Under the pieces are notes generated by a model. The model was not told where the DNA came from. It did not search any database and saw only the letters and a program-made list of their open reading frames with translations. DNA of 64,000 bases from a virus, in UHGV virus genome UHGV-1579991, one strand, 5' to 3'. Shown here in pieces: positions 2,282 to 64,000 of this stretch. The position numbers were made by a program, and so were the translations under genes. Each line of letters opens with the position of its first letter. The stretch's first letter is position 1.

Positions 2282-4273
2282 ATGTCTGAAGTTAAGCATC
2301 AAGTATATGACCCTGTAGCACAATTCAAATCTGCAGAAGAAAAGGAAGCTGCAAGAGTCGTGTGGTGTTCAGAAAGTGTGCGTCGTGCATATGCAGCAGT
2401 TGACCAAGGCCTGCCATTACGGTCGAATCCCTGGTTCTTTGGCAATATTGCATTGCGTAAGCCAGGACTATTGTATAGATACTCTGACGTAGAGCTACGT
2501 GAATGGCTTAGATGTGCTTATGATATACTGTACTTTGCCAACACATACGCTACACTCATGACACCTGCAGGTGTGCGAATGCATATTACGTTGCGACCAT
2601 ATCAGAAAAAAATGCTTCGTGCGTATCAAAAGCAAAAGTACATTATAAGTTTGTGTGGACGACAAATAGGCAAAACTACGACTGCTGCAATTTTCCTCGC
2701 TTGGGCTGTCATTTTCAATCGTGAGCTCAACATAGCAGTACTTGGCGACCGCTTGGCTACATCAAGTGAAAACCTGAACAAAACAAAAGACATCATAAAC
2801 AATCTGCCATTCTTTATGAAGCCTGGTGTGTTTGTTTGGAATGGTGGAATGGTCGCATTTGACAATGGCTGCAAAATTATCACAGGTACTGCTCAAAAGT
2901 CATCACTTGTCGGTAAAACAATTCACATCTTGTATCTTGATGAGCTCGCAATTCCGCCTGCTCAGCAATCAAAGACTCTTGTAGACTATGCATTGCCCAC
3001 AATTGCATCATTGCCAACTGGCAAAGTTATCGTAACATCTACGCCATCTGGTGATAATGTGTTCAAGACTTTGTGGCTTGGTGCAATTAACAAAACAAAT
3101 GGATTCTTTCCAATTCAAGTAAACTGGTGGGACATTCCAGGTCGTGATGAAAAGTGGAAAGCTGAACAAATTGCAATTCTTGGTGAAGATGCTTTCAATG
3201 AGCAATACAACTGCGTGTTCTTGTCAGGTGCAACGTCAATTTTCAATTCAAGAGCAATTGATGATATTGCAAGACGACAACAAAAGTATGAATTTGTTGC
3301 TGATGAGCGTCTTGAATCGCTGCTCAGATTTTTCATTGCTGATTCAGATGTTGGCACTGAACCTGAGCCGCATTCATTTATGACTTGGCGTGCAGATATT
3401 GACCCAGCGACACTCAAAAATGAAACATGTATCATCAACATCGACATCGCTGAAGGCTTATCTGGCGACTTTTCTGTCATACATGTGCATCGTATAGTTG
3501 ACATTGCAAAAGATGCTGAACTTGAACTTGATGCAAGCAATCTGTATGATATGTTTGACGATGACAAAAAATCATTGTTTGCAAAAGCAGTTGAAATGCA
3601 ACGTCAAATGTCGGCAACACAAGCTCAAGATGATGACGATGATGACGATGACGACTGGTTTGGCGCAGACGATGATGTTGCTCAAGGAGTCGATGCATAT
3701 CAAGATTATGCGAATGCTGCAGTAGAAGAGATTGGCTTGTGGCGCTCAAATGTGACGTCAATTAAAGTCATGGCTCTGTATTTGCAGTTCTTAATGACAT
3801 ATGTGTTTGACGCAAACAAAACAAAGATTATCTATGAACGCAACAAATATGGTGGAGAGTTTCGTTCATATTGTTTGTCTGAACGTGCACGCAATATTGC
3901 AATTGATGAAGAGAGCTTCGTAAGCTTCCAACGAACTCTTGGTTCAGAACAACTTGCACCAGGCTGTTCAATTACGCCTGGCACCAAACCAGTGTACGTA
4001 AGACAGCTCAAAGACCTTATTGAAACTGGCAAGATTCTTGAAAACAATGCAGATACGCAAAGAGAGCTTACATACTTTGGCGGTGTCAAAGGCAAGAATG
4101 GTCATGTGTCATATCAGGCATCACCAGGCTTCCATGATGACATTGCAATGACTCTTGTATCTCTTGCAGCATTTATGGACACTCGATGCAACGATTGGCT
4201 TGAACTGCTTGATGTGTTCTACAATGGCAGCAGTCAAACAAGTTCTGATGATGACGATGATGACTGGATTTGA
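2282..4273 (+). CDS. terL: terminase large subunit
   Basis: 663 aa ORF with Walker A-like P-loop (LCGRQIGKTTTAA) followed by a nuclease-type C-terminal half; contains poly-Asp tracts (DDDDDDDDDW and C-terminal DDDDDDWI). Confidence 0.8.
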   Translation: MSEVKHQVYDPVAQFKSAEEKEAARVVWCSESVRRAYAAVDQGLPLRSNPWFFGNIALRKPGLLYRYSDVELREWLRCAYDILYFANTYATLMTPAGVRMHITLRPYQKKMLRAYQKQKYIISLCGRQIGKTTTAAIFLAWAVIFNRELNIAVLGDRLATSSENLNKTKDIINNLPFFMKPGVFVWNGGMVAFDNGCKIITGTAQKSSLVGKTIHILYLDELAIPPAQQSKTLVDYALPTIASLPTGKVIVTSTPSGDNVFKTLWLGAINKTNGFFPIQVNWWDIPGRDEKWKAEQIAILGEDAFNEQYNCVFLSGATSIFNSRAIDDIARRQQKYEFVADERLESLLRFFIADSDVGTEPEPHSFMTWRADIDPATLKNETCIINIDIAEGLSGDFSVIHVHRIVDIAKDAELELDASNLYDMFDDDKKSLFAKAVEMQRQMSATQAQDDDDDDDDDWFGADDDVAQGVDAYQDYANAAVEEIGLWRSNVTSIKVMALYLQFLMTYVFDANKTKIIYERNKYGGEFRSYCLSERARNIAIDEESFVSFQRTLGSEQLAPGCSITPGTKPVYVRQLKDLIETGKILENNADTQRELTYFGGVKGKNGHVSYQASPGFHDDIAMTLVSLAAFMDTRCNDWLELLDVFYNGSSQTSSDDDDDDWI

Positions 4274-4860: not shown

Positions 4861-5172
4861 TTATAATGAGTCAGACACTACAGATGCATATTGCAAGACC
4901 TGTTTGCGAATATCACTGCCAATCAGTCGTTCATATTGCAGACGCAGTTCTGTAACTGTCATATTATCTGGCAGCTCTTTGACTTTGATAAAGATGCCTG
5001 CAGTGTCACCTTTAGCAATATAGCCTGTTTTCTCGCACATGTTACGCAAACAGTCAATATATGAATGTCGCTCAGATTTGACTGCACATAGCATTTGCTG
5101 CCTGCTAAATGACTCACCTACTGCAATGCTTGCAATGAATGACTTAAATGCATGCCAACGTGTCATTGTCAT
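4861..5172 (-). CDS. hypothetical protein
   Basis: 103 aa minus-strand ORF co-oriented and tightly packed with neighbours. Confidence 0.4.
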   Translation of the reverse strand: MTMTRWHAFKSFIASIAVGESFSRQQMLCAVKSERHSYIDCLRNMCEKTGYIAKGDTAGIFIKVKELPDNMTVTELRLQYERLIGSDIRKQVLQYASVVSDSL

Positions 5173-6900: not shown

Positions 6901-7003
6901 ATTTGGGATGGACTCTTACGTTTATTTAAGAATAAAGTACCACAAGTTGTCAAGTTTTGCTAACTTTGACGACTTGTGGTACGTCTGTTTTATGCATGCA
7001 CTG

Positions 7004-7372
7004 TTATTTGATTGCGCGTTCAAACATTCTGCAGCACCAGTCTTTATATGCTGGATTGCCCTTAACATCTGCTCGGAATGCACAGTTGATAAGAGTCTTC
7101 TCTTCATCAACAAAGCATGCATAACGACAGTTTGCACAGCAACGAGCATCTTCTTGCTTAGTACAGAATGCTGCACATGTCATGTCATCTTCTGTGTTGC
7201 GAATTGTTTTTGTTGGCGTGTATTCATAAGTGCACTGACAAATGCCATTATGTTCACGATGAAAGAAGCAATTTTTGCAAACATGCGCAACTTCTTCAAC
7301 TGGTGCTGATGCTGCATATGTTTGTTCTTGCTCTACTGCAGACTGTGCAGCAGCTTTAGTCTTTTTTGCCAT
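7004..7372 (-). CDS. cysteine-rich hypothetical protein (start placed at internal Met, MAKKTKAA)
   Basis: The track ORF 7004..7456 begins inside a tandem repeat, so its first 28 residues are a repeat artefact; ATG at 7372..7370 is the likely start. Product carries more than 12 Cys (CKNCFF...CQC...CAAFC...CCANC...CC). Confidence 0.45.
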   Translation of the reverse strand: MAKKTKAAAQSAVEQEQTYAASAPVEEVAHVCKNCFFHREHNGICQCTYEYTPTKTIRNTEDDMTCAAFCTKQEDARCCANCRYACFVDEEKTLINCAFRADVKGNPAYKDWCCRMFERAIK

Positions 7373-7397
7373 TGTATCAAATGTTTGTATTTGTAAG

Positions 7398-7473
7398 TTG
7401 TTTTGATGCAAAATGCAAAACAATATAAAATTGTTTTGATGCAAAATGCAAAACAATATAAAATTGTTTTGAT
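7398..7473. repeat. 33-bp tandem direct repeat (about 2.3 copies), each unit containing an 8-bp inverted repeat
   Basis: Unit ttgttttgatgcaaaatgcaaaacaatataaaa at 7398-7430 and 7431-7463, partial third copy to 7473; internal ttgttttg...caaaacaa inverted repeat. Lies between the ligase stop and the Cys-rich gene start. Confidence 0.7.
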
Positions 7474-7475
7474 AT

Positions 7476-9380
7476 CTACAAAGATTTGAACAATTCCTCG
7501 TATGTTACAATTTTCTTGCCTTTTGCAAGTGCTGCTTTCATTTTGTTCGACAGCTTGTTGACATCATTTGTGACAACATAGTCACATGCATCAATGTTTG
7601 CACCGACATCTTCAAGCTTACCATTTGCTGCATCAATAAATGCACCTTTTGTTGCCCAAGTAGGCTTAGGCGAGCCTGTCATGACAACCTTGATTGTGTT
7701 AGCATGCGCAGATGCTTCTTTATGCATTTCATTGAACATCACGAAGCATTGTGGAAAGCGCTTGAGTAATCTTTGTATGACATTCAACTTTATGAGCCTG
7801 TCAATTGGCTCCATGCTCAAGCCCTTAAAGTCATACTGGCAATTGCTAAAGTACGCAGACAACTGATATGCAGCTTTACCACCGAGACCAGGAATCTGCA
7901 TGCATTCAATGAAATGCGACAAGTGAATGCTACTGAAGCGTTCACGTAAGCCTGCAATGACTGTACGGTCATTTTTGCTGTTTGTGTCAAACTGCAGCAG
8001 CTCAAACAGTCGTTCATTGTCAACTTCTTGCACAATGCAGAACAAGTCTTCAATTGTGGGCGCATCAGAGAATGTCAACATGACATCAAGATTGTCTTGT
8101 GCAATAAGCAATGCTTCACAAATTTTCGTAGCATAAACCCAGCCAAGCCCATCAATATTAAGCTTGCAAACGCCTTTGATAAACCTCGTGCATCTTGCAA
8201 ATTCCTCAGGCATCATCAAGTGAATGCCATCGACATATGCATGTACAGGAATGTCAGCTTTGCTGCTATCACCAGGTTCAATACATTCTTGAATGTCTGG
8301 AATAATGTCACCGCCCTTTTCAATACGAACAAGAGCGCCTGGCCAAATACCATTTGCATGCAAAAAGCCATAGTGAAATGCTGAAGCTGCTTTTACTGTA
8401 GTGCCATCAAGCTCAACAGGCTCAAGTTCAACTCTCGGAAAAAGCTCACCATTGATTCGCTGACGCCAATCAATTCGAGTCACTCGAGTTACAGCAGACA
8501 TTGCGTCAAGCTTCAATGCAACCATGTTTGCATATTCTGCTGCATTTGCAAACTGCTGCTCAATCCACAAGTCATCTGCAAAAGGCTTGACTACAATGCC
8601 ATCAATGCGATATTTGAATTCTGAACGCCCATTGGCAATTTTTGTGCAAGTTTCTGCAAACTCATTGTAATCAGTGACTTCAAAGACTTCTGCAATGAAT
8701 TCTGCAGGCCAGCCAACTTTAGCAAGAGCATCTGCAGGATTGGTTTGCTCATATGTTTTGCCATCAAGTGTGTCAGTCAGCATGTATGCCATAGGGTCAA
8801 TGTCTTCCATGCCACACATGTCTAATGACTTCACAAATGCTGCAGCAGTATTGCGCTCATTTTTGTATTTGACAGAGCCATCAGCATTGAAATGATATTT
8901 TTGTGCAAAAATGTCTTTTGCAATGACAGCCTCAAAGCGAATTTGATATGGCTGTTCTGCTGCAGCAAGCTGCATCGGCACTTTGCCTGCTACAACAAAT
9001 TTGCGCGTGACATCATAGCCCGTATAGCCATCACCACGAGTAACAACTTTTAGCAATCTGCCATCAGTGTCGTAATGTGCTTCACAGCCCATGCCATCAT
9101 ACTTGTGCATAAGCAGCATTTCATGACCAACAATGTTGCACACAGTATCATGCAACGCAGTTGTAAACTGTGACTTTGTATGAATTGCAGCAAGACTCAA
9201 TGCAGGTGTAAGATGCTTAACTTCTTGTTTATTTGACTCTTCAAAGCGAATCTTATGTTTAATGTCGCTATTTGCAAGAAGCTGCTGTTCAAGAGCATCA
9301 AATGCCTCATCAGACATTATCGGATTGCCTGCATAATACGCAGCTATTGCGTCATGGTACATATTGAGTGTATCAGTCAT
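7476..9380 (-). CDS. ligA: NAD-dependent DNA ligase
   Basis: 634 aa; LigA-type N-terminus (YYAGNPIMSDEAFDALEQQL), adenylation KxDG motif (MHKYDGMG), C-terminal HhH-like region (GLGGKAAYQL). Confidence 0.75.
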   Translation of the reverse strand: MTDTLNMYHDAIAAYYAGNPIMSDEAFDALEQQLLANSDIKHKIRFEESNKQEVKHLTPALSLAAIHTKSQFTTALHDTVCNIVGHEMLLMHKYDGMGCEAHYDTDGRLLKVVTRGDGYTGYDVTRKFVVAGKVPMQLAAAEQPYQIRFEAVIAKDIFAQKYHFNADGSVKYKNERNTAAAFVKSLDMCGMEDIDPMAYMLTDTLDGKTYEQTNPADALAKVGWPAEFIAEVFEVTDYNEFAETCTKIANGRSEFKYRIDGIVVKPFADDLWIEQQFANAAEYANMVALKLDAMSAVTRVTRIDWRQRINGELFPRVELEPVELDGTTVKAASAFHYGFLHANGIWPGALVRIEKGGDIIPDIQECIEPGDSSKADIPVHAYVDGIHLMMPEEFARCTRFIKGVCKLNIDGLGWVYATKICEALLIAQDNLDVMLTFSDAPTIEDLFCIVQEVDNERLFELLQFDTNSKNDRTVIAGLRERFSSIHLSHFIECMQIPGLGGKAAYQLSAYFSNCQYDFKGLSMEPIDRLIKLNVIQRLLKRFPQCFVMFNEMHKEASAHANTIKVVMTGSPKPTWATKGAFIDAANGKLEDVGANIDACDYVVTNDVNKLSNKMKAALAKGKKIVTYEELFKSL

Positions 9381-10057: not shown

Positions 10058-10111
10058 TGAAGTTTATTGTTATATAGTGATATAATACAACAAAAATCTC
10101 AAATTTGCACA

Positions 10112-10621
10112 CTACGATGGCTTTTTGTCATCAAATTTGAAAATGACTGGCATTGCAGAATCAGGCTTTATGTCGCCTTTGTTAACTGCGTCATTTAAGC
10201 ATTCTACAATCTTTTTGCCAAGGTCTTTTACTTCTGCAGGAATTTTCTCGTATGGCACATTTGATGACAGTTGAAGCTCATTTTGCTGATGCTCGTTTTG
10301 TTGAAGCTCTGCTGTTTCAGATAGCTGCTTGTCAATTCGAGTAAACATCAATTCATCACGTGCATCAATAAATTCTTGAATTGCTTGCAGCTGCTCAATG
10401 CTGCATATGACAACACATTGCAATAAGTTTGATGCATCATAGAATGACATGCCAATAATTCGTGTAGTGTCACAATCGAATGCGCAATTGATGTCTTTCA
10501 ATGTGTCCATAAATGACATTGATAAGTCTTCAATGCCTGATACATCTGCAATGCTGAACACAAATTGTGTGCTGCCAACGCATTCATGCTCATCTGAAAA
10601 TATGAGCTTATCTACTGTCAT
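10112..10621 (-). CDS. hypothetical protein
   Basis: 169 aa ORF. Confidence 0.45.
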   Translation of the reverse strand: MTVDKLIFSDEHECVGSTQFVFSIADVSGIEDLSMSFMDTLKDINCAFDCDTTRIIGMSFYDASNLLQCVVICSIEQLQAIQEFIDARDELMFTRIDKQLSETAELQQNEHQQNELQLSSNVPYEKIPAEVKDLGKKIVECLNDAVNKGDIKPDSAMPVIFKFDDKKPS

Positions 10622-13422: not shown

Positions 13423-14462
13423 GATTGCTGCACGAATTTTGAGAGCTCGAATGACAATGCGAGCATTGTTATGAATTGGTCAATTGACTGTTTAGACTCT
13501 ACACTGTATTTGTGAGCTGCAATGACAATGTCTCCAAGTCGTGCAACAAAACCAGGCGTATTCTTTGAGAGCTTTGCATAGCACCAATTTGCAAAGTCAG
13601 TTGAGAGAGCATTGATGACTTCAGTTTCACGACCTTTGTATTGTGACAATGTTTTGTAAAATTCACGCGGGTCTTTGCATGCGACAATGAAGTCATACAG
13701 TTCTTCAAACTTTGCTGACATGCCCTTTGTGACATGCTCAAGCGTTATATGACGCTCACCTTGATTGAAGACAAAGTAGCAAATGTTCAGAATTTTGCGG
13801 AAGTCTGGATAGTTATCTTGAATTAGCTTGATGAGCGCTTCTTTTTCAATGGTGCATTCATTTTCCTTCAAGATATTGTAGACGCGAACCATGCACTTCT
13901 TCATCAACTGTTCTGCAATATCATCAGAAAAGTCGAATGACAGCATTTTGAGACGAGATTGAGCAATTGATGCATCAATACGGTCTGGATAATTGCAAGT
14001 TGCAATGAAAAACGCAATGCCTGCAAACTCTTCAATGGTGCCTCGCAAAGCCATCTGGCTTTGTGTCGATAGATAATCCATTTCATCAAGCAGCACAACC
14101 TTTACGCCACTTGACGACAATGACATATGCTGACAGAATTCTGAAATTGTGTTGCGAACTGTGTCAATGCCAGAATTCTTTGAGCAGTTGATTTGCAGAA
14201 TTGAACGTCTATCAGTCCACTTCAATGCCAATGCTCTTGCTGCGGTTGTTTTTCCACTTCCTGGTGCTCCTGCGAACAAATAATTTTGCGGCTGACCATT
14301 AAATGCCGCAGCATAATCATCAGGCACAATTAACTCTTCGACTTTTGTTGGCCTGTAGCGTTCTAACCAAGTTCTATCTTTAAGGGATGCCATTTGTTGT
14401 TTGTTGATATATGTAAAAATATTGTACAACAATACTGTCATTTTTGCACAGCATGGCCGCAA
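13419..14462 (-). CDS. sliding-clamp loader subunit (AAA+ ATPase, RFC/gp44-like)
   Basis: 347 aa; Walker A (FAGAPGSGKTTAARALA), Walker B (VVLLDEMD), sensor-like SRL region. Confidence 0.7.
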   Translation of the reverse strand: MRPCCAKMTVLLYNIFTYINKQQMASLKDRTWLERYRPTKVEELIVPDDYAAAFNGQPQNYLFAGAPGSGKTTAARALALKWTDRRSILQINCSKNSGIDTVRNTISEFCQHMSLSSSGVKVVLLDEMDYLSTQSQMALRGTIEEFAGIAFFIATCNYPDRIDASIAQSRLKMLSFDFSDDIAEQLMKKCMVRVYNILKENECTIEKEALIKLIQDNYPDFRKILNICYFVFNQGERHITLEHVTKGMSAKFEELYDFIVACKDPREFYKTLSQYKGRETEVINALSTDFANWCYAKLSKNTPGFVARLGDIVIAAHKYSVESKQSIDQFITMLALSFELSKFVQQS

Positions 14463-24921: not shown

Positions 24922-25637
24922 TTGAAATGTGCGGATGTCGGATTAGTGTCGGTCATTCTAATGTGCCAGTCATAAATGAACCATCTTGCGAGGTCATCAT
25001 TTTTGATGTTATGAGTTTTGACATACTGTTCAGGGCCTAATGCCTCGCCGGTTTCAGGATTGACTGCGAAGTGGGATTCATCTACATTAGTAGACTTGTT
25101 TTTGATGTTTGAGATTCGGAGCTTTGTATGCAGTTCAGTGCCATCAGATTGCAGTGTTTTGACATAGAATGCAGTTTTTGTCGTTGCTTCATTGTCAAGC
25201 CATACACCGAACTTAACTCCGTGCGATTTCCAGTATGCATTGTCAGCATCCCTGATTGCTTTGAAGTTCGGGTCATCAAGCCAAGGCTTGAAGACATATA
25301 CAGCATGTTGTTCCTTTCGAGTGATTTCGCCTTTGCCTTCACAAACTGTATGATACAGCCGCATTGCAGTTTCTTCATCGAAATAATAAGTCAGATTGCC
25401 TGGCTTATCGAATGTGCCAAACTGCTGACCATCGATTACGAGAATGAATGTGTAACGTGAATCCTTGAAGAACTCTACTCGTACAGGCTGTTTGTGCTGT
25501 CTGCTGTTAAGCAGTCTGTCAATTGTAATGACTGCCCAGTTGGTGCCTGTCTTTGTTTTGTTGCCGTGAAACAGTTCAGGATATGAAACTGTGTAAGGCA
25601 ATGCTTTGTACTTCCAATGTTCATTAAAACTTTTCAT
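24918..25637 (-). CDS. hypothetical protein
   Basis: 239 aa ORF; two copies of the upstream motif at 25700-25830. Confidence 0.5.
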   Translation of the reverse strand: MKSFNEHWKYKALPYTVSYPELFHGNKTKTGTNWAVITIDRLLNSRQHKQPVRVEFFKDSRYTFILVIDGQQFGTFDKPGNLTYYFDEETAMRLYHTVCEGKGEITRKEQHAVYVFKPWLDDPNFKAIRDADNAYWKSHGVKFGVWLDNEATTKTAFYVKTLQSDGTELHTKLRISNIKNKSTNVDESHFAVNPETGEALGPEQYVKTHNIKNDDLARWFIYDWHIRMTDTNPTSAHFK

Positions 25638-25900
25638 ATGTAGAGATTTTTGTAGTTTGTATCAATTGCATTCTATATCAATTGCATCTTGTATCAAATA
25701 CATTATATTGATATATGATAATTGTACTACAAAAATCCCAAATTTGCACACTTTGATAATCAAAAGTGCAAACAAAATTCAAAGTTATATTGTACATCAT
25801 AAAGTGCAAATTTGCACTTTATGATGCTGCAAAATGTTTGCATAAAAAAATAAGCAGCTTAGATTGCTAAGCTGCTGTCATTGTATGTATGCAGTCACTG

Positions 25901-26437
25901 TCATTTGTAGTGTTCAGTTATGTATGCAGAGCATAGCAAAACAACTGATACACAAATGACAATGTATGTTGGCGTAATCAGTGTCACATTGAATAACAAT
26001 GCAGTCAATGCGCATACTGTTACTGATATGAGTGTTGAAATGAATGCAGCATATGCACTAAACTTGCTTTTTAACAAACGTTCGATGATATATGTTGTCG
26101 CAACAGACAGTAAGACTACACATGCAAATAACAACAGCCAAGTTGAGTTTGACGTTGTCGGCTCTTCAATAAACTGCAATGTTGCTGATGGCACTTCAAT
26201 ATTGTTTGATGCTTGTAATGTGCCACTTGCAGCATCTGCGTACATCACAGTTAAGTAGTGTCGTTGAATTTCTGCTGCGTCTACTTTATAGATTCTATGC
26301 CATGCAACATCTGATATGATGTATGTTGCAGCCATAAATGCAGCAATGCATAGCATATAAGAGCCAAACTTTGCAATCGGTTTCATGCAAATATATTTTT
26401 GTTTGTATATGTACATAAAAGAGCAAGTTCTCCACAT
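25901..26437 (-). CDS. hypothetical multi-pass membrane protein
   Basis: 178 aa with several hydrophobic stretches. Confidence 0.45.
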   Translation of the reverse strand: MWRTCSFMYIYKQKYICMKPIAKFGSYMLCIAAFMAATYIISDVAWHRIYKVDAAEIQRHYLTVMYADAASGTLQASNNIEVPSATLQFIEEPTTSNSTWLLLFACVVLLSVATTYIIERLLKSKFSAYAAFISTLISVTVCALTALLFNVTLITPTYIVICVSVVLLCSAYITEHYK

Positions 26438-26764
26438 TGAGAACTTGCTCAGCTGACCTGTTACCAGGTGAAAGCGTGGTGCAGCACCTTGTGCTGCAAT
26501 GGCTATGCTGCCATCGCCATAACGGGCTGAGCATTGCCCAGCATCATTACACGACCAGCTGCATTAAGCGTACGCTTTGCTTTGTTGAAAAATTTGCCAG
26601 TTATCTGGTATCTGCACATCTATTCAAGCGACCTACTATGCAATCAAATGCCTGTCGAGCCCAATGTTTGAGCAGTTGTTTGTCAGATGCTCAGCTGACT
26701 GCAGTCTTTCTGAGTGTATCAAGTTCAGCGATTCTGCATCTTTGCTAAATGGCAATGGTTCAGG

Positions 26765-26800
26765 TGGACTCGCCGAGAATCGAACTCGGGTCTTACATAG
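26765..26800 (-). other. tRNA-like fragment (T-arm plus acceptor 3' strand only)
   Basis: Minus-strand read CCGAG-TTCGATT-CTCGG-CGAGTCC-A is a canonical T-arm plus acceptor 3' strand, but I could not find a matching 5' acceptor strand, D-arm or anticodon arm before the next tRNA. Confidence 0.3.
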
Positions 26801-26845
26801 CGCATCCTTGACTTGGTCCTGTAAACAGGGTTGTCAACATGCATT

Positions 26846-26916
26846 GCAATACGACAGGACTCGAACCTGCGACCTCGGATTGGACGTCCGCGCTCTTACC
26901 GCTGAGCTACGTATTC
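26846..26916 (-). tRNA. tRNA, anticodon uncertain (possibly Gly-UCC)
   Basis: Minus strand: acceptor GAATACG/CGTATTG (G1-G72 mismatch), D-arm GCTC-AGCGGTAA-GAGC, T-arm GCAGG-TTCGAGT-CCTGT; anticodon stem irregular (4 bp), loop CGTCCAA. Confidence 0.5.
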
Positions 26917-27009
26917 TTATCAATTGACTGCACTGCAATGCAATCAATCGTGCCAATGATATTTGACACGCATAATTGCAGTTATGCGTAACAATTCAAA
27001 TGTCATTTG

Positions 27010-27082
27010 AGCCAACTGCAGGAATCGAACCTGTAACCTGCTGAGTACAAATCAGCTGCTCTACCAATTGAGCTAAGTTGGC
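27010..27082 (-). tRNA. tRNA-Thr (anticodon UGU)
   Basis: Minus strand: acceptor GCCAACT/AGTTGGC, D-arm GCTC-AATTGGTA-GAGC, anticodon stem GCTGA/TCAGC with loop TTTGTAC, T-loop TTCGATT. Confidence 0.75.
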
Positions 27083-27164
27083 ATAAAGTCGTTGGGCCAT
27101 TGCAACCCAAACCTATCATCTTTGCCTAACCAAAGATGCAAGCGCTCTCTTACACCACGACTTG

Positions 27165-27235
27165 TAGCCGAACTTGGAGTCGAACCAAGCTTTCGAGAAT
27201 GAAAATCTCGCGTCCTAACCGATAGACGAAACGGC
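27165..27235 (-). tRNA. tRNA-Glu (anticodon UUC), non-canonical acceptor stem
   Basis: Minus strand: D-arm GTCT-ATCGGTTA-GGAC, anticodon stem CGAGA/TCTCG loop TTTTCAT, T-arm CTTGG-TTCGACT-CCAAG; acceptor GGCCGTT/TTCGGCT has two U-U mismatches at its base. Confidence 0.5.
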
Positions 27236-27419
27236 CAAGAGCAGTTCAAGTCTGCAGCATTGAACTGCGGAAACAATGCCTGTACGGGCAACCAATTGTG
27301 CAGATACAGCGACATTGCAAAATCACACCGAACCAAGTTTGTGGCTCTTCTGTCTCATAAAAACAAGTAATCATTACACTTGGCACCAATGATTTTGATG
27401 TAAAAATCGGTGTGTTACG

Positions 27420-27504
27420 CGGAGAGTAAGGGATTCGAACCCCTGGTACGTTGCCGTACAGTGGTTTTCAAGACCACCGCCATCGACCGCTCGGCCAACT
27501 CTCC
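27420..27504 (-). tRNA. tRNA-Ser (anticodon UGA), type II
   Basis: Minus strand: acceptor GGAGAGT/ACTCTCC, anticodon stem GTGGT/ACCAC loop CTTGAAA, 16-nt variable arm, T-arm AGGGG-TTCGAAT-CCCTT. Confidence 0.75.
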
Positions 27505-27697
27505 ATAAAACATTGCATAAGCATTCTTATCTCTTGATGAGGCCAAGTAGCTAATTTGGCAAGTTTGTTATATCTATCGTGACTGTTGCAGTTTGTTGTC
27601 ACTCAATACACAAAACTTTCGAACATTCATTGACAACACTGCAATATCGCTTTTTAAGCTCAGCCATCAATGTATTTATGCAATGTATAACAATTCG

Positions 27698-27779
27698 TAG
27701 CCAAACCGGGACTTGAACCCAGACTCCTAATGGAACAACATTTTGAGTGTTGCGTGTCTACCAATTCCACCATTTGGCC
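27698..27779 (-). tRNA. tRNA-Leu (anticodon CAA), type II
   Basis: Minus strand: acceptor GGCCAAA/TTTGGCT, anticodon stem CAACA/TGTTG loop CTCAAAA, 13-nt variable arm, T-arm CTGGG-TTCAAGT-CCCGG. Confidence 0.7.
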
Positions 27780-27876
27780 ATTTGCAAATGCAAGCTGTTT
27801 CACAACTGTTTGCATTTGCATTTGCATTGTTTAACACACTAAAATATGATTCATCTAATCAAAAACCAGAGAATTG

Positions 27877-27949
27877 TCGAGAATGTGCGATTTGAACGCC
27901 AATTATACGTCCCAAACGTATCGTGTTACCGGATTACACTACATTCTCG
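27877..27949 (-). tRNA. tRNA-Pro (anticodon UGG)
   Basis: Minus strand: acceptor CGAGAAT/ATTCTCG, anticodon stem ATACG/CGTAT loop TTTGGGA, T-loop TTCAAAT with a weak 3-bp T-stem. Confidence 0.6.
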
Positions 27950-27956
27950 TTAATTG

Positions 27957-28027
27957 TTGAACTGTCTGGACTCGAACCAGAAATATATCATCCAAAGTGA
28001 TATGTGTTACCATTACACCACAGCTCA
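27957..28027 (-). tRNA. tRNA-Gln (anticodon UUG)
   Basis: Minus strand: acceptor TGAGCTG/CAGTTCA (one G-U), D-arm GTG-TAATGGTAA-CAC, anticodon stem TATCA/TGATA loop CTTTGGA, T-arm TCTGG-TTCGAGT-CCAGA. Confidence 0.7.
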
Positions 28028-28132: not shown

Positions 28133-28495
28133 TTAATTGCACAATGTGACTCTGTCTTTAAGTTTATGCATGTGTAGCACGTTTGCAATATCTACTGGCA
28201 ACTTATATGACCCATCAGATATTGCAAATGCTGCAAGTTGCATAATCAAATCTGCATTGTCTGTAAGAACTTCTGCAAATTTACTGGCATCACAACATGC
28301 GTAATACTTGCGAATTGTTGCTGCTTGCTTTTGTATGATGACACGCACATATACAGTTTGAGCAATGACTGCGCGTCGTAAATCAACTTTGACAATACAC
28401 ATAGTGTCATCGTCGTCTTTCACGACATGTCGCCATACGCCGTCATTGCAAATGCCATGCTGTGCTATAAGTGTTTTAGTGATATCAGACATCAT
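28133..28495 (-). CDS. hypothetical protein
   Basis: 120 aa ORF immediately downstream (in transcript sense) of the tRNA array. Confidence 0.45.
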   Translation of the reverse strand: MMSDITKTLIAQHGICNDGVWRHVVKDDDDTMCIVKVDLRRAVIAQTVYVRVIIQKQAATIRKYYACCDASKFAEVLTDNADLIMQLAAFAISDGSYKLPVDIANVLHMHKLKDRVTLCN

Positions 28496-35230: not shown

Positions 35231-35361
35231 AGTTGATAAATAATTTATAAACATTTTCACAAACTTTTAACAGCTCTTTCGCTTATGAAAACTACTCAAC
35301 TCTGGTTTGAACGCCAGCAGTCAATCGCGGGGGGGCTCTTCGTGCTCCTGATTACATAGAT

Positions 35362-46890: not shown

Positions 46891-47050
46891 AGGGATGGCG
46901 AACTGTACACATTGTACACATTGTACACACTTATATTGTATGTGTTTGTATATGTATTTTAACAGGCATTAGCAAACAATACAAAAATGCAAAATGAAAG
47001 TGGCTCAGATGTATATCTGGGCCACTTTCATTTGTCATATACGTTGTCTA

Positions 47051-63704: not shown

Positions 63705-64000
63705 TTATGCGTCATCGTACAGTGAATGACTTATCGTCATCTTCTGTAGTAGTTGGGTCATCAATTACATCGTGGCCAATACCTGACATGGGCTCTGGCT
63801 CAGGTTCCGGTTCTGGTTCCGGTTCTGGTTCCGGTTCTGGTTCCGGTTCTGGTTCCGGTTCTGGTTCCGGTTCTGGCTTTGGCTCCGGCTTAGGCTCTGG
63901 CTTAGGCTCTGGCTCAGGTTCCGGCTCAGGTTCCGGTTCTGGTTCCGGTTCTGGTTCCGGTTCTGGTTCCGGTTCTGGTTCCGGTTCTGGTTCCGGTTCT
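63705..64000 (-). CDS. hypothetical protein with (Glu-Pro)n / (Lys-Pro)n dipeptide-repeat region, partial (N-terminus beyond window)
   Basis: Minus-strand frame is open from the window edge to stop TGA at 63707..63705; ggttccggttct repeats translate as EPEPEP...EPKPEPKP, ending ...[29 protein letters not shown]. Confidence 0.5.

Follow-up and report, generated by a model that had tools for sequence, protein, structure and literature searches.

A tandem 33-bp repeat between the DNA ligase gene and a small Cys-rich gene of an uncultured human-gut phage: a candidate cis-regulatory module

The source of the sequence considered here, UHGV virus genome UHGV-1579991, is an uncultured ~175-kb human-gut phage, and near-identical sequences of 174–181 kb are present in human-gut metagenome assemblies. 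The window, that is, the whole stretch analysed, is 64,000 nucleotides long, and its genes in this part lie nearly all on the minus strand. A tandem array at positions 7398–7473 (minus strand) separates two of them. Upstream lies the gene for an NAD-dependent DNA ligase (7476–9380, minus strand), recognised by Pfam PF01653 and PF03120 and by tblastn against phages. Downstream lies a gene (7004–7372, minus strand; true start ATG at 7372) for a 122-residue Cys-rich protein with 13 Cys and two conserved CxxC motifs. Directly after the Cys-rich gene, a strong hairpin with a T-rich tail (6940–6979, minus strand; −17.5 to −23 kcal/mol) is the likely terminator closing the unit. Neither the Cys-rich protein nor its neighbours gave an informative match in Pfam or PHROGs.

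Tandem Repeats Finder (TRF) describes 7398–7473 as 2.3 copies of a 33-bp period with 100% matches, no indels and a score of 152, the highest of any repeat inside the window, the terminal GGTTCC array excepted. Exact pattern search and direct reading of the sequence gave the same array, with copies 100% identical; the 33-mer occurs exactly twice in the window, against 0 expected from 100 shuffles. A preliminary description of this DNA had reported a 33-bp tandem repeat with an internal hairpin between the ligase and Cys-rich genes, and TRF together with an inverted-repeat search bears this out. On the minus (sense) strand the array reads ATCAAAACAATTTTATATTGTTTTGCATTTTGC twice and then ATCAAAACAA or, resolved into its parts, (ATCAAAACAA TTTTATA TTGTTTTG CATTTTGC) twice followed by a terminal ATCAAAACAA. 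The sense-strand order of the junction is the end of the ligase gene (TTG TAG), AT, the array, a leader, CTTACAAATACAAACATTTGATACA, and the ATG of the 122-residue gene.

The conserved unit is a 26-bp dyad, TTGTTTTG-CATTTTGCAT-CAAAACAA, and between dyads there are variable linkers of 4–7 nt. The unit contains an 8-bp inverted repeat, TTGTTTTG and CAAAACAA, whose arms are 10 nt apart; measured between centres, its half-sites lie 18 bp from one another, and the dyad has an asymmetric centre. Written as TTGTTTTG-CAT(T/C)TTGCAT-CAAAACAA, the same element has two direct TTTGCAT heptamers inside the inverted arms. Because the two arms alternate along the array, there are two hairpin registers, the second being a slightly stronger palindrome over each unit junction, CAAAACAAT-TTTAT-ATTGTTTTG, with 9-bp arms and a 5-nt loop. 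From 5′ to 3′ on the minus strand, a short box, TGTAGATAT (7472–7480), recognised by reading the sequence and by motif statistics, overlaps the ligase stop codon TAG (7476–7478); the first CAAAACAA arm (7464–7471) doubles as the 3′ part of this putatively start-associated box. Linker 1 (TTTTATA, 7457–7463) and dyad core 1 (7431–7456, 26 bp) follow, then linker 2 (TTTTATA, 7424–7430) and the gene-proximal dyad core 2 (7398–7423), identical over its 26 bp. The conserved A-rich leader occupies 7373–7397, as judged by sequence reading and strain comparison, and includes at 7384–7395 a TACAAA hexamer present two or three times, depending on strain.

The array is carried, as five sequence variants, by independent assemblies from more than 10 samples, which rules out an assembly artefact, a possibility that had been flagged for checking; the repeat is genuine. 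The variants also agree with the expectation that copy number would differ among isolates. In the window and in the related genome L002 there are two units with linkers of 7 and 7 nt. L001 has three units (3.3 copies), the first with the linker CATA. L014 has two units and one linker cut to TATA (period 30), and L019 has two units with one linker TATA (period 30) and the other TTTTACA. In the commonest strain group (L007–L013, 23 contigs) there are two units, of which the first is decayed: its linker is TTTTACA and its core has two more substitutions (TAGTTTTG, CATCTTGCAT). Both linkers are thus hypervariable among strains (TTTTATA, TTTTACA, TATA and CATA at linker 1). Core 1 is invariant in L001, L002, L014 and L019, and core 2 is intact in all strains seen. 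More distant relatives, here called, after their protein identity, the 62% relatives (L005/L006) and the 48% clade (L015–L018), keep the gene order without the array, the former with a 48-bp spacer and the latter with a 70-nt spacer containing TGTACATATAAC. Natural alleles with 0, 2 and 3 copies are therefore at hand. Within the 48% clade, L015 and L016 have a 397-residue gene inserted between the ligase and Cys-rich genes, which L017 and L018 lack; the insertion (L015:4410–4500, also in L016) is flanked by a 23-bp direct duplication, AAATTCATAATGTTGATATGAAA, spanning the ligase stop codon.

What, in this small spacer, is being kept? Summed over five strains, whose five haplotypes come from independent assemblies, the spacer shows 5 substitutions at 509 aligned sites, whereas the adjacent intergenic region, 6901–7003, shows 31 at 508. 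Given this roughly six-fold lower substitution density, the spacer appears to be under constraint. Divergence from the window is 0–3% in the spacer, 4–9% in the intergenic region 6901–7003, 3–7% in coding sequence and 10–20% at four-fold sites of the ligase gene. Changes are concentrated in the 4–7-nt linkers; four of the five strains have identical cores, and the leader is almost invariant. From this pattern, selection seems to act on the leader and on the sequence of the unit, with copy number and linker length apparently free to drift.

A search of viral contigs with the fixed-gap pattern TTGTTTTG-N10-CAAAACAA returned 73 stretches, four of them in two known 175-kb relatives, L201 and L208, and two of those four lie at a new locus. 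A looser palindrome search, CAAAACAA-N3-8-TTGTTTTG, gave more than 120 unrelated chance matches in viral contigs and was set aside as uninformative, and a metagenome scan for the core added one further contig only. The arrays at this second locus (L201:700–880 and L208:1430–1515, on IMG/VR contigs 3300045988_152288 and _149023) have a period of 34 bp and 2 to 5 units, with two units in L208, and three full units plus two degenerate ones upstream in L201. Their sequence is TGTACATAT CAAAACAA, then (CATCTTAG TTGTTTTG CATCTTGCAT CAAAACAA) repeated. TTTGCATYTTGCATCAAAAC is invariant across all units of both loci, while the distal L201 units show decay at the outer positions of the arms. Since the outer arms decay while the central 20 nt stay, recognition of sequence is favoured over pairing.

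At the second locus, the element has the same 5′ boundary, and the same orientation toward the downstream open reading frame (ORF), as at the first. The array points at a small ORF (118 residues in L201, 22 codons in L208) followed by a bidirectional terminator; in L208, the array is followed by about 240 nt holding the 22-codon ORF and then the terminator. The DNA from array to terminator is non-homologous between L201 and L208. This locus is a divergent intergenic region next to a poly-C tract, in a module that the window's strain type lacks, and just 110 bp of its surroundings match the window, at 35234–35344. Window-like contigs showed no array there, and many assemblies break at that point. 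The homopolymer is G7 in the window (35329–35335), C10 in L201 (617–626) and C7 in L208 (1349–1355); it lies in a hypervariable module, at ~34.9–36.1 kb, whose gene content depends on strain, and it could be a slippage-prone or phase-variable site. In the first unit of the L007–L013 group, all three substitutions (ACA, TAG and CATCTTGCAT) resemble the unit of the second locus, which suggests, from the sequences compared, either gene conversion between the loci or a retained ancestral state. In the window, a scan for degenerate cores found none with up to 7 mismatches in 26 besides the two true copies; at 8 mismatches there were 9 matches beyond these, against 0–3 per shuffle, at best marginally above chance.

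The boundary that the two loci share is a short box. TGTAGATATCAAAACAA, which overlaps the ligase TAG at the first locus, and TGTACATATCAAAACAA, at the start of the arrays of the second, are identical at 16 of 17 positions, giving the consensus TGTAsATATCAAAACAA and a box TGTA(G/C)ATAT-CAAAAC. The pattern TA[CG]ATAT-N0-5-CAAA occurs nine times on the sense strand of the window and not at all on the opposite strand, with a shuffle mean of 0.8 and a maximum of 3. By pattern search, the copies, TA[CG]ATAT-N0-5-CAAA(C) on the minus strand, are at 46956, 39387, 32730, 27576, 26413, 21806, 14415 and 7478, with one inside a gene at 28194. Four copies stand immediately 3′ of strong terminators, and two directly follow the −10 element of the main promoter-like motif of this phage, GTGCAAA-N12-GTTGTACAAT, of which the window has ~19 copies, all on the gene-sense strand and often directly after terminators. 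In the 48% clade, TGTACATATAAC precedes the Cys-rich gene, including in the genomes where an extra gene follows the ligase. The box is thus probably associated with transcription starts, and could represent a further promoter class or an element of transcript starts. The nearest upstream copy of the main motif, GTGCAAA-N12-GTTGTATTAT, is at 10078–10121 (minus strand), the probable start of the ligase-containing operon. Box, array, Cys-rich gene and terminator together look like a self-contained unit.

As structures, the repeat hairpins are modest: they fold with −4 to −8 kcal/mol, on stems with two G-C pairs, whereas the ~17 clear hairpin-plus-T-run terminators in the window reach −17 to −23 kcal/mol, and coding DNA yields chance hairpins of comparable strength. 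Taken with its leader, a single unit folds no more stably than shuffled sequence, and none of the registers prevails in the ensemble. Homology of an AT-rich hairpin in the 62% relative, by whole-stem covariation, was considered and set aside; that hairpin is no more stable than shuffles (z = −1.0). Searching the region against Rfam 15 gave only generic hairpin matches of at most 22 bits (E ≥ 0.35), below the gathering threshold. The weak hairpins, the conserved asymmetric centre, the decaying outer arms and the variable linkers argue for recognition of sequence over recognition of structure alone.

We propose that the array is a promoter-proximal or 5′-leader cis-regulatory module for the Cys-rich gene, whose unit is recognised by its sequence, and we give this proposal an even chance of being right. 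The array lies between the putatively start-associated box and the conserved A-rich leader with its ATG, which would be operator or 5′-leader territory. The presumed steps are that the box marks a transcription start, that a factor binds the units and that expression is thereby affected; each unit would be bound sequence-specifically by a regulator tuning expression of the small downstream gene. Such a factor could be a DNA-binding protein acting as a repressor, or as a roadblock just past the start site. Alternatively, it could bind the equivalent weak hairpins in the mRNA leader, or the hairpins could themselves be 5′ stabilisers. The tandem state would be a by-product, as the 10-bp direct ends ATCAAAACAA, 33 bp apart, would permit replication slippage or unequal exchange. 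Slippage between these ends would explain why units are gained, lost and partly decayed between strains, the sequence of the unit alone being selected.

Several points weigh against this proposal. No candidate for the regulator emerged, and the neighbouring small proteins are without a family match. The 3-bp changes in the linkers shift the helical phasing between sites, which counts against strictly cooperative binding. The 62% and 48% relatives keep the Cys-rich gene without the array, so the gene itself can do without it. The element is unique in the 64-kb window and occupies two loci in relatives, which would make for a very small regulon. The association of the box with transcription starts comes from its position and orientation, and the constraint figures come from five related strains that are not phylogenetically independent, so that they are indicative rather than the outcome of a formal test.

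Could the array instead be read as tandem weak intrinsic terminators or attenuators? Here the hairpin CAAAACAA-linker-TTGTTTTG, followed by CATTTTGCAT, would partly stop transcripts coming from the ligase gene and so lower expression of the Cys-rich gene. The array indeed lies directly 3′ of a stop codon, two bona fide terminators of the window end in an identical CATTTTGCAT, and among strains the stems and the T-rich tail are kept while the loop varies (TTTTATA, TATA, CATA, TTTTACA). However, the hairpins in question have only −4.5 to −6.8 kcal/mol, which is far from the values of the clear terminators and at chance level, a consensus terminator scan does not call them, and no T run follows the gene-proximal unit. 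In addition, whereas the array at the first locus is downstream of the co-oriented ligase gene, that at the second is in a divergent intergenic region without a co-oriented upstream gene, and its tail, CATCTTGCAT, is less T-rich. We therefore regard attenuation as unlikely. Another possibility is that an AT-rich spacer with short direct repeats has recently expanded by slippage and has no function. The complete identity of the copies implies recent duplication, copy number and linker length vary among close strains, as does the number of neighbouring TACAAA hexamers, decay of the first unit is under way in the commonest strain group, more distant relatives lack the array, and leaders elsewhere in this phage contain short tandem repeats too. 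It is difficult to reconcile with this the six-fold lower substitution density and the lack of any core substitution at 10–20% synonymous divergence, or the recurrence of a 20–26-nt element at a second locus with its boundary and orientation alike. Neutrality of copy number fits the regulatory proposal just as well; neutrality of the unit does not, and a functionless array is, in our view, improbable.

The preliminary description had also suggested that the repeats might be promoters or replication-associated iterons. As tandem promoters of a minor class, used by the host polymerase or a phage-modified one, the units, for example through TTGCAT-N18-TATATT, would provide multiple starts for the Cys-rich gene. 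A weak sigma-70-like combination of TTGCAT, 18 nt and TATATT does lie across each junction on the sense strand, an nAnATT hexamer is kept in all linker variants of the first locus, and one subclass of the main promoter motif likewise has TTTGCAT directly beside its −10 region. Yet on a matrix built from 16 main-motif sites, on which the ~19 real window copies score 20–38, the unit scores ~0–1 (best values over 7340–7520: 0.4 sense, 1.2 antisense), and a generic promoter scan of the repeat region makes no sense-strand call. Furthermore, the 3-bp linker deletions would cut the spacer to 15 nt, the linker of the second locus, CATCTTAG, has no −10-like hexamer, and there is no further copy in 64 kb. 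A by-eye reading of the unit as a Bacteroides-type promoter (TTTG / TAnnTTTG) was also discarded, for want of an acceptable match or spacing. What survives of the promoter suggestion is indirect, namely that the array starts at a gene-oriented, putatively start-associated box; that the units themselves are promoters seems quite improbable. Iterons would be dyad repeats bound by an initiator, next to an AT-rich stretch and inside a block of replication genes. Lambda-type origin iterons are tandem direct repeats with internal dyad symmetry and an adjacent A/T-rich stretch, and the direct repeats with internal dyads and the adjacent A-rich leader resemble them. The neighbours related to replication are the ligase, a weak, below-cutoff 5′–3′ exonuclease domain match and DHFR, and the region, as single-stranded DNA, folds better than all 200 shuffles (z = −3.4). 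Against this, units number only two to three. Set beside the three or more regularly spaced direct repeats of about 17–22 bp expected of such iterons, the window carries 2.3 copies of a 33-bp unit and L001 has 3.3, the period being 30, 33 or 34 bp according to strain and locus. The array lacks positional conservation, as the junction of the 62% and 48% relatives has a 48–70-bp spacer with no repeats, and a further array, missing from the window's strain type, precedes a variable accessory ORF at an unrelated locus in a non-replication region. Among the neighbours of the array, none could be recognised as an initiator gene, and no inflection of the skew is visible at 7.4 kb, a measure confounded here by the one-directional gene orientation. 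The iteron suggestion thus fared badly, and we consider it very improbable. The same low standing applies to a transcribed decoy RNA, in which the units would form a small non-coding RNA that mimics a host RNA (for example a CRISPR repeat, which would make it an RNA anti-CRISPR, or solitary repeat unit) or sponges an RNA-binding protein. A 30–34-nt unit with a hairpin is within the range of CRISPR repeats, and the transcript of the second locus in L208 (~240 nt, a 22-codon ORF and a terminator) could be essentially non-coding. Nonetheless, there are no spacers, the Rfam CRISPR-DR models stay at 12 bits against thresholds of ~50 (CRISPR-DR22 reached 12.4 bits, E = 7, its gathering score being 50), and the 22-nt core has no exact match in the genomes, one each, of 185,579 bacterial and archaeal species, which offered no host, prophage or CRISPR lead. 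A decoy is accordingly highly unlikely.

Returning to the proposed cis-regulatory module, the array is somewhat like several described elements, with the defining features of none, and no sequence homology to described elements was found. In T4-type phages, PeSL (promoter-early stem-loop) cassettes (Arbiol et al. 2010, PMC2839356; Comeau et al. 2014, PMC4122927) are likewise short conserved non-coding regulatory cassettes with a stem-loop, and in the genome of a large lytic-type phage they too take up more than one intergenic position. They stand at the boundaries of small strain-variable genes in hyperplastic regions; here, the cargo of the second locus is non-homologous between L201 and L208, and the junction of the ligase and Cys-rich genes is itself an insertion site in the 48% clade. 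However, a PeSL combines a strong sigma-70 promoter with an effective terminator hairpin and is present in many copies, whereas the array here has a weak hairpin, no main promoter motif, tandem units and two known loci. By this analogy, box and array might be a mobile regulatory cassette of ~175-kb gut phages, recombining the boundaries of accessory genes and perhaps giving a repeat-containing non-coding RNA as a decoy for a host or phage factor, an idea that we hold to be distinctly unlikely. Compatible with it are the strain-dependent cargo of the second locus and the first unit of the L007 group, which looks converted toward the second locus. In the sequences scanned, the element is at two loci in L201/L208-type genomes and at one in the window's strain type.

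In Cluster K mycobacteriophages, start-associated sequences (SAS) and those with extended inverted repeats (ESAS; Pope et al. 2011, PMC3203893) are likewise conserved and specific in orientation, lying just 5′ of the start codons of some genes, and both they and the array are thought to act on expression of the downstream gene. SAS differ in being 13 bp long, in occurring in 11–19 copies per genome and in including the ribosome-binding region, and the ESAS repeats are 17 bp long and not tandem; the array is tandem, lies at two loci, has no Shine-Dalgarno-like element and shares no sequence similarity with them. Phage operator arrays, such as lambda OR/OL, the Mnt/Arc operators of P22 and the stoperators of mycobacteriophages, have dyad sites of ~17–26 bp in two to three adjacent copies by a transcription start. 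Phage operators can block initiation or elongation, and it is their sequence rather than their structure that is conserved. The array shares with them dyad symmetry and sequence conservation and, judging from motif statistics only, may also adjoin a transcription start. It differs in that its half-sites are 18 bp apart, its dyad centre is asymmetric and its site spacing varies by 3 bp among strains; moreover, a cognate repressor, a lysogeny module and a demonstrated promoter are not known for it.

If the proposal is correct, a concrete and testable cis-element would be available in an uncultured lineage of large human-gut phages. It would comprise the 26-bp unit, the start-associated box and the natural 0-, 2- and 3-copy alleles, and it would mark two recombination-prone junctions. 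General concepts are left unchanged by the finding. The array is, in addition, a small variable-number marker for strain typing of this phage.

The repeat also misleads gene calling. The program-made ORF 7004–7456 (TTG start, 150 residues) reads through it, and its N-terminal extension had been described as artefactual. At the equivalent ATG, homologues of the Cys-rich protein at 62% and 31% identity all start with MAK. An in-frame stop lies 11 codons 5′ of this ATG in the 62% relative, with no start codon in between, and the commonest strain group (L007–L013) carries an in-frame TAG within its first unit. The extension is thus, on the comparison of sequences, an artefact, as had been claimed. 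Public gene calls repeat the error: P0001 (135 residues) and the 137-residue gene of L014 begin at a TTG inside the repeat, with 13–15 probably spurious residues at the N-terminus. Length polymorphisms of 7373–7475 and of the homologous spacers are all multiples of three (33, 30, 6 and 3 bp). The spurious upstream ORF is therefore in frame in most strains, and we judge the multiples of three to be a coincidence; an argument from them that the extension is real was ruled out by the in-frame TAG of the L007 group and the MAK starts of distant homologues. In practical terms, a recurrent error in public protein sets, TTG starts within the repeat, is hereby flagged.

As to the phage itself, nucleotide BLAST of the window against GenBank phages gave no match, and near and distant BLAST of the region likewise gave none. 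At the protein level, the ligase and the T4-type large terminase are closest (30–49% identity) to those of Chryseobacterium phages MA9V-1 and MA9V-2, Sphingomonas phage PAU and Tenacibaculum phage PTm1. Phages of Bacteroidota are among the nearest cultured relatives. Start codons are without Shine-Dalgarno-like sequences. Besides the copy upstream of the ligase gene, which starts at 10121, the matrix places main promoter-like motifs on the minus strand with starts at 14460, 19545, 23542, 25760, 25828, 28120, 32771, 35239, 43520, 44422, 48771, 51202, 54526, 57279, 57307, 58441 and 59587. A subclass of the motif has an inverted TGCAAA...TTTGCA pair between its boxes, and the motif is also present in the 48% clade (L017, about 5040–5080).

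This phage seems prone to tandem repeats in its leaders. A 16-bp unit is repeated 2.6 times at 25657–25697, between a promoter-like site and the ATG at 25637, and GTGTACAAT is repeated 2.9 times at 46904–46929, just after a start-associated box. TTTGCA is repeated 3.3 times at 27809–27828, in the tRNA region. That region, 26412–28027, is a cluster of seven tRNAs (Gly, Thr, Glu, Ser, Leu, Pro and Gln). A permuted “tmRNA*” reported by ARAGORN at 26412–26854 is doubtful, since it overlaps an ORF start and none of the Rfam tmRNA models attains its gathering score at this site. Within coding sequence, poly-Asp runs (GATGATGAC repeats) at 3629–3655 and 4247–4264 lie inside and at the C-terminus of the large terminase ORF, respectively. 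Finally, the GGTTCC/GGTTCCGGTTCT repeat at 63803–64000 encodes, on the minus strand, an (EP)n / (KPEP) run in a gene that continues past the end of the window.

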